A stretch of DNA of 64,000 nucleotides from an uncultured Gammaproteobacteria bacterium (GTDB taxonomy: Bacteria > Patescibacteriota > Patescibacteriia > UBA9934). Every line of letters starts with the position of its first letter. Position 1 is the stretch's first letter. Positions 2,861 through 44,979 of the stretch are shown piece by piece. A program made the position numbers and the translations under genes. The stretch lies in contig CAYNYL010000001.1 of the NCBI GenBank assembly GCA_964401485.1, positions 67,834 to 131,833 of the forward strand, given 5' to 3'. The notes below the pieces were generated by a model. That model did not search any database and was not told the origin of the DNA. It saw only the letters and a list, made by a program, of their open reading frames with translations.

Positions 2861-2967
2861 CCCCGCGGCTCTCTCGAGCTTGCGGGGCGTCGCTTTTTCT
2901 CTAGACCTTGCCAAAACCTCGGTAAAATGCTAAAAATCCTTGTCGCTTTAGGAGGCGACTACCAATG
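2861..2967 (+). repeat. cassette copy B: terminator, promoter, RBS and ATG, near-identical to 2041..2148
   Basis: The 107-bp segment differs from copy A at only about 6 positions. It has the same CCCCGCGG hairpin, TTGCCA at 2908-2913, TAAAAA at 2931-2936, AGGAGG at 2951-2956 and the ATG at 2965. Confidence 0.7.
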
Positions 2968-3615
2968 TACGAGCTCTTTTTTCACTTTATCGTCAAGCCC
3001 GGAATCACCTTCGGCATCTCTGCGAAGAACCGTTTTCAAGTCAGGTGTGAAGAAGAGGCTGGAGCGGGAGTGCGATGGGAGTGGCGCGGAAGTTTGGAAG
3101 AACTCGCAAGCGCGATCAAAGACTCAAAGACACTCGACGAGTCCATGCCGATCGCCTACCACTTCTGGAACAGCGTTGTCCTTAACGAAGGCGAATCCAC
3201 CTTCGAAGACTCCCTCGAAGACTGGTCGAACAGGCCAAAGGCGATCGCTACGACCGTCTTTCTCGAAGACCCGGAGGAGAACCGTGATCTCGACGCCACG
3301 CTCCGACGATTCCTCGAGAGTCGACCGACGTTCGCCAAGGTGGACCATGCGGATGGCTCCGTGTACATATGCGAAGAGCTCCGTCTCATCCAGATCGACG
3401 GTGTGGTCAAAGATCATCTCGGCTTCGTCGTTCACCGCTGGATCGGTCCGATCAAGACCATCCTCGATCAAATCAACCCGATCGAAACAGAGAGAATTCT
3501 CTTGGGCTGGTACGGCCTTAACCTCGCCGACATGCGCGACCCAACGACATCCCTCAAGTTCGAGATCACGATGGACCGCGTCGAGCACCTACTCCTTGTC
3601 CTTCGCTCAGCCTAG
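2965..3615 (+). CDS. hypothetical protein P3, paralog of P2
   Basis: 216 aa with its own copy of the cassette upstream. It is followed by the terminator at 3629-3666. Confidence 0.55.
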   Translation: MYELFFHFIVKPGITFGISAKNRFQVRCEEEAGAGVRWEWRGSLEELASAIKDSKTLDESMPIAYHFWNSVVLNEGESTFEDSLEDWSNRPKAIATTVFLEDPEENRDLDATLRRFLESRPTFAKVDHADGSVYICEELRLIQIDGVVKDHLGFVVHRWIGPIKTILDQINPIETERILLGWYGLNLADMRDPTTSLKFEITMDRVEHLLLVLRSA

Positions 3616-3666: not shown

Positions 3667-3695
3667 GTTGACCAAACCGCCCTCCCCTGCTATAC
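3667..3695 (+). promoter_or_regulatory. sigma70-like promoter for the tRNA pair
   Basis: TTGACC at 3667-3672, a 17-nt spacer, TATACT at 3690-3695. The tRNA begins 13 nt downstream. Confidence 0.55.
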
Positions 3696-3707: not shown

Positions 3708-3794
3708 TGCCGTGGTGGCGGAATGGTATACGCGACGGACTCAAAATCCGTTTCCCTAACAGGATTGAGGGTTCGAGTCCCTCCCACGGTACCA
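3708..3794 (+). tRNA. tRNA-Leu, anticodon CAA, with encoded CCA
   Basis: The acceptor stem is GCCGUGG, the anticodon loop CUCAAAA, and there is a long variable arm. It ends ...CCCACGGUACCA. Confidence 0.85.
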
Positions 3795-3798
3795 AAAT

Positions 3799-3875
3799 GG
3801 CTGGGTAGCTCAGTTGGTTAGAGCGAGGGACTCATAAGCCCTAGGTCGTGGGTTCGATTCCCACCCCCGCCACCA
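3799..3875 (+). tRNA. tRNA-Met or tRNA-Ile2, anticodon CAU, with encoded CCA
   Basis: GGCUGGGUAGCUCAGUUGGUUAGAGC, anticodon loop CUCAUAA, T-arm GGUUCGAUUCC, then CCA. Confidence 0.85.
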
Positions 3876-3949
3876 AAAAGTCGTCCTTTTACAGGGCGAT
3901 TTTTTGTTTATTTTTTAGCTGATTTTAGCCTTTTTTAATCATTTTGCCC

Positions 3950-3978
3950 TTGACATTTTCCAAAAAATATGGTATGGT
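3950..3978 (+). promoter_or_regulatory. strong sigma70-like promoter driving the non-coding transcript
   Basis: TTGACA at 3950-3955, a 17-nt spacer, TATGGT at 3973-3978, with TAATAC as an alternative -10. The region has an AT-rich UP-like upstream stretch. Confidence 0.5.
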
Positions 3979-3984
3979 AATACT

Positions 3985-4497
3985 TCGTTGGAACAGTGCC
4001 TAATGCCCTGTAAACTAACGAAATCCGGAAACGTCGGAGGTACAATGTACCAGAAGCCGTTCCTCTAATAGGGTCAAAGCCCTTCCCTTCCTGCCGGGGG
4101 CTCATCTCGTCGGCAGGCGTGATCGCTTGGATCATGGTATCAACTCAACCAAGCCTCCTTGACCAGGAGTAAATCGGTCGGAGCATTCATGCTCGATCAA
4201 TAAAAACCTTCCTCCTCGCGGATACGGCGAGAATCGGAAGGGCTACATACACAGTATCCGGGGGTTACACTACCTCGACAACTCGAGCTCGGCTGGGTAA
4301 AGAACGGCGCTAATTGCGGGCCTAGTACTTACACGAAGAGTGAACCTGGTGACAGGTGAATCGAGACGTCGACCTCGTCAGGGTCGAACTAAACGGTTAC
4401 GTGCCGATTTCGTCTGAAGTCGGTTCGTCCAGAACGCCCGATCTACTCGGGCTTTGTGAACGCCAAACGACTCGCCTTTACGGCGGGTCTTTTGTTT
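3985..4497 (+). ncRNA. unassigned structured RNA of about 510 nt; a divergent RNase P RNA is possible
   Basis: Only one short alt-start ORF crosses this stretch in any frame. It is bounded by the promoter above and by a terminator, GACTCGCC..GGCGGGTC followed by TTTTGTTT, at 4469-4497. GAAAUCCGG near 4018 and ACAGUAUCCGGGGGUUA at 4251-4267 resemble the two P4 strands of RNase P RNA. Confidence 0.35.
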
Positions 4498-4622
4498 ATA
4501 TGAACCCGAGTTTCCTCCCTTCAACCATGCGATCACAGATACTTCCCAAAATATGAGGACAGGTAGGCATTTTTAAAACCAGCTTGTGATCGGACCCCCT
4601 ATTTCGCGGGACAGACGCCCTC

Positions 4623-5114
4623 CTATAAAACGAACCGTCCAGAAATCGTAAGAAACGTAACGATGGCTCCTGAACACAAGAGTCCAAAAAGAATACCCGC
4701 AAACGCTTGCCGCACTGGAATTTTTAGCGCAACAGCCGCGAGTGTCGCGGTATAAAGTCCCGTTAAAGGAAGTGGGATCCCAACAAAAACCGCAAGGGCC
4801 CAAGCCCCATACCGAGCAAAATGGCCCGATACTTTTCGCTCTGCCCGTAGGACAAGGTGGTCAAGAAACCGAACACTCCACGGCGCGACCTTCTCAAGAA
4901 TTTTGCGAAACGTTGCGAGCCCAAAATATAGTGGAAAAAATGGAATCAGATTACCAAGAATCGCAAGACAAAATACCGTAACAGGGCCCATGTTCCAATG
5001 AAGAATCCCAACAGGAATTGCAAGACGAAGTTCCCCAATAGGAACAGCACCAAGAAGAATGACCGCGAGTTCGCGAGGCACACCCTCAAGCGCTAAAACA
5101 ATTGCCTCTTTCAT
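4623..5114 (-). CDS. putative small multidrug-export membrane protein (Sm_multidrug_ex / COG2426-like)
   Basis: MKEAIVLALEGVPRELAVILLGAVPIGELRLAIPVGI matches the family N-terminus. Four transmembrane segments are predicted. Confidence 0.5.
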   Translation of the reverse strand: MKEAIVLALEGVPRELAVILLGAVPIGELRLAIPVGILHWNMGPVTVFCLAILGNLIPFFPLYFGLATFRKILEKVAPWSVRFLDHLVLRAERKVSGHFARYGAWALAVFVGIPLPLTGLYTATLAAVALKIPVRQAFAGILFGLLCSGAIVTFLTISGRFVL

Positions 5115-5115
5115 A

Positions 5116-6075
5116 TTATTCCCAAGAAAACACATCAAACACCCACTCCGCAAGCGCTTTTACGTCCGTCTCACGATCCGTCTTTGTTTCCGCCCCAAGC
5201 GCCGCAATATAGACCTTGTGCCCGTCCTTCTCAACGGCGCTCGTAAGAACATAGCCCGCCTGCGGAAGATACCCTGTCTTCCCCGCTGTAATCGCAAATG
5301 GAGGCTCCGCAAGATAACTCGCAAGAAGTTGATTCGTATTATCAACCGTAATCACCGCCCCGCTTCCCTGCCTGATGGTTGCCGTAGCAGTTGTCATCGC
5401 TTCTTGAAGCACGTCGTACGTTTCCGCCGTCCGCAAAAGTTTAATCATGTCGCGCGCCGTTGAGGTATTCTCGCTACGAATTCCGGTAGGATCAACAAAG
5501 GTTGTCGAGGTCATCCCGAGCTCCCGCGCCTTCTCGTTCATCTTCGCAACAAACGCCTCCTTTTCCATCCCAGAAAATCGCACGAGCGACTCCGTCGCCG
5601 TATTGTCCGATCCGACAATTGCCGTCGTAAACACGTCCGCAAGCTCCGTCTCGTCAAAATAGTTTAGGTAGAGTCGTCCTCCCCCAACGTAATCGTCGGG
5701 TGTGAGCGTCACCTCTTTTGTTAACTCAGGTTTTGCCTCTAAAAAGACGATCGCCGTCATGAGCTTTGTAACGCTCCCGATCGAGCGCACGTCGTCCGGA
5801 CGCCGTCCAATCATCATCATTTCCGTCACCCCATCCTCAACGATAATGCTTCTCGCAGAAGTAAAAACGCCGAGCGCCTCCTTCTTCACTTTCTTTGGGT
5901 ACGCTGGCGCAAATGGACCAAAAAGCGACGCAGGAACTCCCGTCCCTCGCTCTGGTAAAAAGGTCTCAACGGAAGCGGTTCGCGTATACGCCGACTCTAA
6001 ATCAGCAATATCTGTTTTCAGGTACTGCTTATAAAAGAGCGAGCTCGCAAGATCGTGGATTAGGGTGTCAAACAT
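5116..6075 (-). CDS. D-alanyl-D-alanine carboxypeptidase (serine-type; PBP5/class A beta-lactamase fold)
   Basis: SxxK (SVTK), SxN (SDN) and KTG motifs are present in the correct order. The start is at MFDTLIHD, adjacent to the scpB stop. Confidence 0.7.
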   Translation of the reverse strand: MFDTLIHDLASSLFYKQYLKTDIADLESAYTRTASVETFLPERGTGVPASLFGPFAPAYPKKVKKEALGVFTSARSIIVEDGVTEMMMIGRRPDDVRSIGSVTKLMTAIVFLEAKPELTKEVTLTPDDYVGGGRLYLNYFDETELADVFTTAIVGSDNTATESLVRFSGMEKEAFVAKMNEKARELGMTSTTFVDPTGIRSENTSTARDMIKLLRTAETYDVLQEAMTTATATIRQGSGAVITVDNTNQLLASYLAEPPFAITAGKTGYLPQAGYVLTSAVEKDGHKVYIAALGAETKTDRETDVKALAEWVFDVFSWE

Positions 6076-21598: not shown

Positions 21599-21890
21599 AT
21601 TATTCATTAGGCCTGGTCGCGGCAAAGTATGCCGTACAAAAAACCAGAAGACGTTATCCATCACCTGATAGAAAACAGCTTCTAGTTCTCAAATTTCTCC
21701 TCCGTGATTTTGAGAATGATGTGGTTAATTAATGGACTCGGTTCCTTTCTATCCTTGGAAGAAGCGGCGAGTAGGTTTTCTCCGTAGAGATCTTATACTC
21801 GGTTCGACTCAAGAACGTTTTTTGGTTTTGAACCCGCGAGAGACCTCCACCTCTCGCCGGGTCAAAACCGGCTGCCCCAAGGGGCGTTTA
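21599..21890 (-). promoter_or_regulatory. unusually long S10-L3 spacer of 292 bp carrying two hairpins; candidate terminator, attenuator or leader
   Basis: On the minus strand a GCCCCUUGGGGC hairpin plus AGCCGGUUUUG lies immediately after the S10 stop. A perfect 10-bp stem, CCCGGCGAGAG..CUCUCGCGGG, follows. Confidence 0.4.
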
Positions 21891-44859: not shown

Positions 44860-44979
44860 AAAATCCTTTAGATTTGTAGCTTATCACGACTTCCCGATTG
44901 ACAAAAGTGCCATTTTATGGTATGTTTCTTGGTTCTCGCGAAAGCGAAAACGCCTTTACAACCGCCCCTGGAGGCAGAG

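Follow-up and report, generated by a model that had tools for sequence, protein, structure and literature searches.

On balance, we read positions 3950-4497 on the + strand of the DNA analyzed here (a stretch of 64,000 nt, hereafter the window) as a new, narrowly distributed, independently transcribed and structured noncoding RNA whose selected parts are two terminal modules, a reading to which we give somewhat better than even chances. The region carries transcription signals, is noncoding, matches no known RNA family, has terminal modules under a purifying selection that fits hairpins, and is conserved in a mosaic fashion (Table 1). In our best explanation, the RNA is confined to a small Patescibacteria clade related to Uhrbacteria.

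A self-contained noncoding unit

Upstream of the RNA unit lies a tRNA-Leu(CAA)/tRNA-Met(CAT) pair at 3709-3875, which is served by a separate promoter (3668) and terminator (3874-3906). Downstream, the unit is bordered by a convergent gene on the - strand (4623-5153) that encodes a small multidrug-export protein (PF06695). By virtue of its own promoter and terminator, the unit is self-contained and separate from the tRNA operon. A preliminary description, made from the sequence, had proposed a near-consensus TTGACA-17-TATGGT promoter here, and our promoter scan bore this out. Across both strands of the 64-kb window, nine sites reach a score of 10/12, and three of the nine combine that score with a TG-extended -10 element and a 17-nt spacer: the site at 3950-3978, the tRNA promoter at 3668, and a site at 44898. 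The TGGTAT core of the -10 element is invariant in the window and in the three homologous loci described below (L002, L013, and L014). The AT-rich segment at 3907-3949, a possible UP element, hardly differs from L002 where the alignment covers it, despite the saturation of 4-fold sites between the two loci. The intrinsic terminator that had been placed at 4469-4497 was likewise recovered by a terminator scan; read on the - strand, its hairpin has a poor U tract. The repeat of TTTTGTTTAT at 3902 and 4490 proved to be merely two terminator tails, not a transposon end, and a search of the RNA unit for terminal inverted or direct repeats resembling transposon ends yielded none that was convincing.

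Every frame of the unit (3950-4497, + strand) is closed by stops of all three types, and six-frame translations of the L002 and L013 homologues revealed the same closed frames. The earlier statement that about 510 nt lack a substantial ORF is therefore accurate; indeed, 3809-4622 is the largest gap in the 64 kb without an ORF of at least 90 aa. The sole + strand ORF of at least 30 aa that touches the RNA (4356-4556) reads through the terminator, and the part of it that lies in the 3′ module differs from L002 by 10 amino-acid changes versus 1 synonymous change. No + strand gene was found downstream of the unit. An own promoter, an intrinsic terminator, and the lack of an ORF, the generic hallmarks of an independent bacterial noncoding RNA gene, are thus all present at 3950-4497.

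On the + strand, the window RNA folds with a z-score of -4.1, and the - strand reaches -2.1; 19 control windows of the same length, taken across the 64 kb, gave -0.57 +/- 1.18. Together with the promoter, the terminator, and the closed frames, these values confirm the observation of a noncoding unit. Relative to shuffled sequences, full-length folding reaches -4.1, -6.0, and -5.2 in the three lineages, the first value being that of the window. The preliminary description had further called the stretch G+C-rich and helix-forming. Folding of the whole RNA (z = -4.1) upholds the second part of that claim, but less strongly than stated: the last 100 nt (z = -5.6) provide most of the folding signal of the window, whereas the 323-nt middle alone reaches only -1.9, versus -2.6 and -4.8 for the corresponding body in L002 and L013. 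The first part does not stand as evidence of selection, because the G+C content of the body (0.54) matches that of 4-fold sites in the genome (0.52); the flanks are AT-rich because they hold the promoter and the terminator. Given this neutral composition and the weak folding signal in the window, constraint may be absent from much of the body, and with it from most of the "large RNA."

Several observations were made elsewhere in the window. Among the control windows, the 513-nt one that starts at 21601 was alone in folding strongly (z = -4.6). In the ribosomal-protein operon, a 226-nt noncoding gap (21665-21890, - strand) separates the S10 and L3 genes, with a long hairpin, GGTTTTGACCCGGCGAGAGG...CTCTCGCGGGTTCAAAACC, directly after the S10 stop; this gap has no Rfam match at E<=5. 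Directly upstream of the tRNA pair, two paralogous orphan proteins (2146-2826 and 2965-3615) share 22% identity. L002 encodes one homologue (40%) in the same place, and the orphan proteins co-occur with the RNA in both lineages that could be checked. They are without other homologues in a set of 5.8 billion proteins and match nothing in Pfam, PHROG, or PADLOC, and the AlphaFold model of the orphan neighbor (pLDDT 32) was unusable. At 750-1200 and 1800-2100, G+C content is 0.61-0.64, compared with 0.51 for the window on average; the ORFs that overlap there match no family and lack an L002 counterpart, and these segments look like a variable island beside the tRNA genes.

Table 1 Features of the RNA unit and its flanks, in window coordinates.
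Feature	Position	Strand	Basis or remark
AT-rich upstream (UP-like) region	3907-3949	+	Between tRNA-Met terminator and -35 box
Sigma-70-type promoter, TTGACA / 17-nt spacer / TG-extended TATGGT	3950-3978	+	Promoter scan; predicted start ~3984-3987
5′ module	3985-4075	+	
Hairpin P1	Outer 3985-3991/4015-4021; inner 3993-3996/4008-4011 and 3998-3999/4005-4006	+	Window MFE
Hairpin P2, UCCGG / UCGGA	4024-4038 (4024-4028/4034-4038)	+	Window MFE
Hairpin P3, GGUAC-AAU-GUACC	4039-4051 (4039-4043/4047-4051)	+	Window MFE
Micro-ORF MYQKPFL* (MYQKPFRI* in L002)	4045-4068	+	Direct reading of sequence
Conserved tail AGAAGCCGUU, predicted single-stranded	4052-4061	+	Within 17-nt block 100% identical in L002
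Variable hairpin-rich body	4076-4371	+	Unalignable with L002/L013
Island motif ACAnACAGnnUCCGGGGG / ACAUACACAGUAUCCGGGGGU (the "P4 3′ strand" of the preliminary description)	4244-4264	+	18/21 nt recur in L002
Conserved ACCUCGUCAG	4372-4381	+	Common to window and L002; degenerate in L013
3′ module	4399-4497	+	
Hairpin H1, 9 bp, loop GUCU	4403-4424 (4403-4411/4416-4424)	+	Window MFE
Hairpin H2, long, irregular, 13 pairs, three 1x1 internal loops, loop 4442-4446	4426-4462 (4426-4441/4447-4462)	+	Window MFE
Intrinsic terminator, 8-bp stem (6 GC), loop UUUAC, then TTTTGTTT / UUUUGUUU	4469-4497	+	Terminator scan
Conserved spacer to export-gene stop codon, inverted repeat CGATCACA...TGTGATCG	4498-4622		Sequence comparison

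Conserved ends and a variable body

Searches of genome and metagenome collections and of a 5.8-billion-protein resource recovered three other copies of the RNA, all from close Patescibacteria relatives. L014 is a strain 98.6% identical to the window, L002 is a MAG, and L013 is the 1,091-nt JGI contig Ga0451708_0152886. The export protein of the window shares 75% identity with its L002 counterpart and 69% with that of L013; between L013 and L002, the figure is 87%. DNA of the window occurs in SRR29476910 and SRR13355620, and relatives occur in JGI 3300043411. With the export protein as query, L002 was the only RNA-bearing locus to emerge from the genome-contig search, and L013 and L014 were found by protein search. 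The RNA is ~510 nt long in the window, and its L013 and L002 versions measure ~560 and ~590 nt, respectively. Neighboring proteins point to Patescibacteria, the nearest named relatives being Candidatus Uhrbacteria at ~53% identity, and to a lineage for which few sequences are available. At 4-fold sites, the export gene is saturated (identity 0.36 to L002 and 0.33 to L013). Beyond these loci, the 19-mer TCGGTTCGTCCAGAACGCC of the 3′ module gave six chance matches in the metagenome collection, none with flanking similarity to the RNA. In viral collections, 17-26-mers returned nothing or chance matches, the best of which (L035) lies inside a phage protein gene, and blastn against phage records found no match to the RNA. 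Covariance models of the two modules detected no further copies of either in the window or in other Patescibacteria loci.

The 5′ module, composed of three hairpins and a tail, is 91% identical between the window and L002, and the same figure applies to the whole block that runs from the tRNAs past the promoter to ~80 nt into the RNA. All 13 pairs of P1 are kept in L002, its 7 variable columns falling without exception in loops or bulges. In P2, a C-G pair becomes U-G and the L002 loop reads AAGCG instead of AAACG, and the sole change in P3 is a loop A to G, found in both L014 and L002. Overall, 9 of 22 unpaired columns of the module vary, versus 1 of 46 paired columns (Fisher p = 8e-5). The 3′ module is 86% identical to the window in L002 and 98% in L013. 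Two pairs of H1 switch between G-U and A-U, the others being invariant, and these G-U pairs are compatible with the + strand only. Both strands of H2 are 100% conserved in all four sequences, and all five of its loop bases differ in L002. Variable columns of the 3′ module again concentrate in unpaired positions (9 of 24, versus 4 of 68 paired; p = 5e-4).

In alignments of both modules, 100% of cells stay paired, the structures under test having been derived from the window sequence itself. The changes in paired columns (n = 5) comprise three G-U/A-U or C-G/U-G switches and one compensatory replacement, in which the basal pair of the terminator, G-C in the window, is C-G in L002. This is the sole compensatory double change in 3-4 sequences that represent three independent lineages, and with so few sequences the shuffle control is not significant (123/500). 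Because identities of 86-98% persist although 4-fold sites are saturated, the modules are under purifying selection, and the pattern of substitutions, as judged from these alignments, is good evidence for RNA hairpins under selection, short of formal covariation. Cofolding gave a helix between the 5′ and 3′ modules in the window, and this helix is absent from L002. As a side observation on the tail, AACGTCTTCTGG at 21644-21655 (- strand), which spans codons 3-6 of L3 counted from the ATG at 21661-21659, is complementary to the tail sequence CCAGAAGCCGUU with 1 mismatch. Tail-complementary sites with <=2 mismatches number 11, versus 5.4 +/- 2.5 expected; this comparison is post hoc, and we do not rely on the candidate site at the start of rplC.

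Between the modules, 300-450 nt could not be aligned across the homologues by MAFFT, shared k-mers, or sensitive blastn. A possible long-range helix of 9 bp would join 4078-4086 to 4236-4244 within the body. The sole alignable exception is the island at 4244-4264, which lies 107 nt before ACCUCGUCAG in the window and ~7 nt before it in L002, that is, ~100 nt nearer the 3′ module in L002; it is absent from L013. Of the 12 differences between the window and L014, 5 fall within 30 nt at the start of the body (4079-4108), and none falls in 4109-4389.

L013 has a different architecture. The contig starts within the promoter spacer and keeps the TGGTAT core, after which ~450 nt are unlike the window or L002, and the covariance model of the 5′ module finds no such module in it. 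From the equivalent of 4399 onward, it is 98% identical to the window, and nothing upstream of 4399 aligns. Across the 125-nt spacer (4498-4622), the window is 87% identical to L013 versus ~50% to L002, where the stem of the inverted repeat is kept through an A-T to G-C change. Set against the export-protein identities, these spacer identities indicate recent common ancestry of the window and L013 for 4399-4622, not for the body and not clearly for the export gene. This mosaic pattern, observed in a single 1.1-kb metagenomic contig, suggests recombination: either breakpoints lie both inside and beside the RNA gene, or L013 is a chimeric contig. A real mosaic would mean that the body was replaced rather than slowly diverged, and would be the most unusual trait of the locus. 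Whatever the role of the 3′ module, it does not depend on the 5′ module, which is missing from L013. The spacer may be part of the RNA or of the export-gene 3′ UTR, or it may act as DNA.

Alternative origins of the unit

More distant relatives (L003, L004, L017/18, and L042-45), with export proteins 43-57% identical to that of the window, carry a convergent gene for a 156-183 aa protein in the same slot and orientation as the RNA. Its product is a predicted membrane protein whose YdjM/PLC-like similarity is sub-threshold only. Three further contigs (L012, L015, and L016) end before the RNA slot; L015 and L016 are independent assemblies of a relative with 58% identity, and both break inside the export gene. 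In L003 (4648-5069) and L004 (6091-6439), the tRNA-Met beside tRNA-Leu is inverted or duplicated. The locus appears prone to rearrangement.

Because the distant relatives carry a protein gene in this slot, the RNA unit could be the scar of a gene loss, which is the main rival to our reading, although we think it improbable. The membrane-protein gene would have been lost or replaced, leaving a transcribed, largely functionless remnant with regulatory ends, namely a promoter-proximal set of stabilizing hairpins and, as insulation for the convergent export gene, a terminator block. Consistent with such an origin, the unit is about as long as that gene, and its body has neutral G+C content, folds weakly, and resists alignment just as saturated neutral DNA would. 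However, tblastn comparison of the L003 and L004 slot proteins with the three RNA regions produced noise only. Moreover, the slot gene of the relatives overlaps the stop codon of the export gene, whereas the window instead has a new terminator and a 125-nt spacer. The ~190 nt of module sequence under strong purifying selection go far beyond what a promoter and a terminator need, and a streamlined genome kept a body of 300-450 nt in three lineages. As these genomes are so small, a strongly promoted noncoding unit of 500 nt is unlikely to have been kept for nothing.

It is also unlikely that two unrelated elements adjoin here. The universal segment, 4399-4622, would then either serve the convergent export gene, as a bidirectional terminator or a 3′ UTR structure, or act as a recombination anchor, and the 5′ module would be either a real short regulatory RNA or a mere stabilizer. 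The joint conservation of the 3′ module and the spacer in L013, in which everything upstream is different and the 5′ module is missing, agrees with such a division, as does the conserved stem that the spacer has of its own. Yet we found no terminator after the 5′ module and no promoter before the 3′ module, which argues that the two modules belong to one + strand transcript; in addition, the G-U pairs of H1 fit the + strand only, and on the - strand, the U tract of the terminator is poor.

We give rather little credence to the idea that the RNA is modular, its body being exchanged by recombination with the promoter region and the 3′ module and spacer as anchors. The evidence for it is the L013 contig. 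Were this so, related cells would hold unrelated RNA "cassettes" of 300-450 nt in one expression slot, and a hypervariable RNA of this kind, beside fast-evolving orphan proteins and tRNA genes, could allow strains to be recognized, for instance when these episymbionts interact with phages or hosts.

That the unit is a messenger or leader RNA for the micro-peptide MYQKPFL, or for some other very small ORF, we regard as very improbable. A GGAGG stands 4 nt before the ATG, and L002 retains the first six codons. However, the conservation is of 17 nt identical at the nucleotide level, without any synonymous change that would signal selection on a peptide; the tail of the peptide differs in L002; there is no downstream gene to regulate; and the RNA contains no other ORF of at least 30 aa. 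Since the Shine-Dalgarno-like GGAGG lies within P2/P3 and the AUG in the loop and stem of P3, and since L013 has no equivalent, the micro-ORF at 4045-4068 is probably incidental.

Known RNA families and a proposed role

At the gathering score, Rfam 15 identifies four tRNAs only in the whole 64-kb window. At E<=10, the region 3850-4650 has no match to RNase P, SRP, 6S, ROOL, GOLLD, or HEARO, the families that the preliminary description had named for checking, nor to OLE or introns; because listed matches at E ~8 score 13-15 bits, anything above ~15 bits would have been visible. Permissive Rfam searches of L002 and L013 (E<=10 or E<=5) likewise matched no family, and covariance models of raiA, group I/II introns, and the other large noncoding RNAs of Rfam had no match at these thresholds in the window or in L002 and L013. 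A tmRNA had already been rejected, correctly so: the sole tmRNA signal in Rfam is the 3′ end of tRNA-Met (3850-3875), and ARAGORN reports none. The alternative that had been offered, a new large noncoding RNA, gains support from the closed frames, the own promoter and terminator, the lack of an Rfam family, and the hairpin-like substitutions of the end modules.

The other suggestion of the preliminary description, a divergent RNase P RNA, fared poorly, and even a highly divergent form is scarcely credible. The two strings that had been likened to P4, GAAAUCCGG and ACAGUAUCCGGGGG, are present as quoted, superficially resemble P4 strands, and both occur in L002, where the 3′ string recurs; the 5′ string overlaps hairpin P2, and the RNA gene adjoins tRNA genes. 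Both putative strands are absent from L013, and neither the window nor L002 or L013 matches any RNase P model at E<=10. The CR-I and CR-V consensus strings of RNase P, used as queries, have no match in the RNA within 3 mismatches. Of the candidate P4 strands, only CCGG/CCGG can pair, and the AAA/UU flanks of a real P4 cannot. Helices P1 and P2 cannot form, because the predicted transcript start lies <=3 nt before the first hairpin. A further 230 nt in the window, and 140 nt in L002, follow the candidate 3′ strand of P4, and the segment that would have to hold the S-domain and CR-II/III, the would-be catalytic and specificity core, is part of what is unalignable among the homologues. RNase P RNAs of CPR bacteria are often missed at normal thresholds (PMC8172020), but diverged ones "still had many conserved features" (Lui et al., PMC8172020), none of which the candidate RNA shows. 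As a model search alone is indecisive for CPR, our rejection rests on anatomy and nonconservation, and on anatomy the RNase P reading is already refuted. The region should accordingly not be annotated rnpB; a search for the true RNase P RNA of this genome has to look elsewhere, at lowered thresholds.

Comparison with other systems brings out partial likenesses. ROOL and GOLLD RNAs are large, form units of their own, and lie beside tRNA genes. The candidate RNA, at ~500-600 nt, shares these traits, and its function, like theirs, is not deducible from context; it differs in having no similarity to their models at E<=10, no phage homologue or phage-family context that we could find, and a distribution limited to one small clade. 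As its body is not conserved, there is also no evidence of an ornate conserved fold. It recalls a type A RNase P RNA in size, in its tRNA-gene neighborhood, and in two CCGG-containing strings reminiscent of P4, but differs in model, motifs, P1/P2/P4 topology, and core conservation. Like CsrB and RsmZ, it is a fast-evolving chain of hairpins between a conserved promoter and terminator; unlike those RNAs, which carry many GGA-type loop repeats, it has no repeated loop motif. The restriction of what is common to all lineages to the last ~100 nt (hairpins and terminator) is reminiscent of sRNAs derived from 3′ ends, from which it differs in that the primary transcript is noncoding rather than an mRNA and the 3′ module has no evident conserved single-stranded seed. 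We know of no RNA chaperone in this lineage. Finally, it resembles hok-type mRNAs in being a few hundred nucleotides long, structured, strongly promoted, intergenic, and fast-evolving, with conserved 5′ and 3′ ends, but it has neither a small hydrophobic ORF nor robust conserved 5′-3′ pairing. Two specific candidates were tried and discarded: a Csr/Rsm sponge, with no 4-6 nt k-mer enriched over shuffles in all three variants, and a type I toxin mRNA, with no small hydrophobic ORF in six-frame translations of the three variants.

We therefore return to an independently transcribed RNA with selected ends, for which we propose the following model. The near-consensus promoter would drive, and the intrinsic terminator would end, an RNA of ~510 nt. 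Selection acts on the 5′ module (3985-4075) and the 3′ module (4399-4497), while the body would be a chain of hairpins that drifts at a near-neutral rate or is swapped by recombination. The product would be a stable, abundant transcript that acts in trans through a binding partner, with function residing in the terminal modules, most likely as platforms to which a protein or another RNA binds; a further task of the 3′ module would be to shield the 3′ end, and the body would act as a structured spacer. Against this model stand the single compensatory pair, the neutral G+C content of the body and its weak folding in the window, the missing 5′ module of L013, and the failure of the 19-mer search to find a true homologue in the metagenome collection.

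Noncoding RNAs of Patescibacteria (CPR) are almost unexplored. If real, the RNA described here would be a new RNA family of one clade, and its conserved ends around a replaceable body would set it apart from the large RNAs described to date, which are conserved uniformly.
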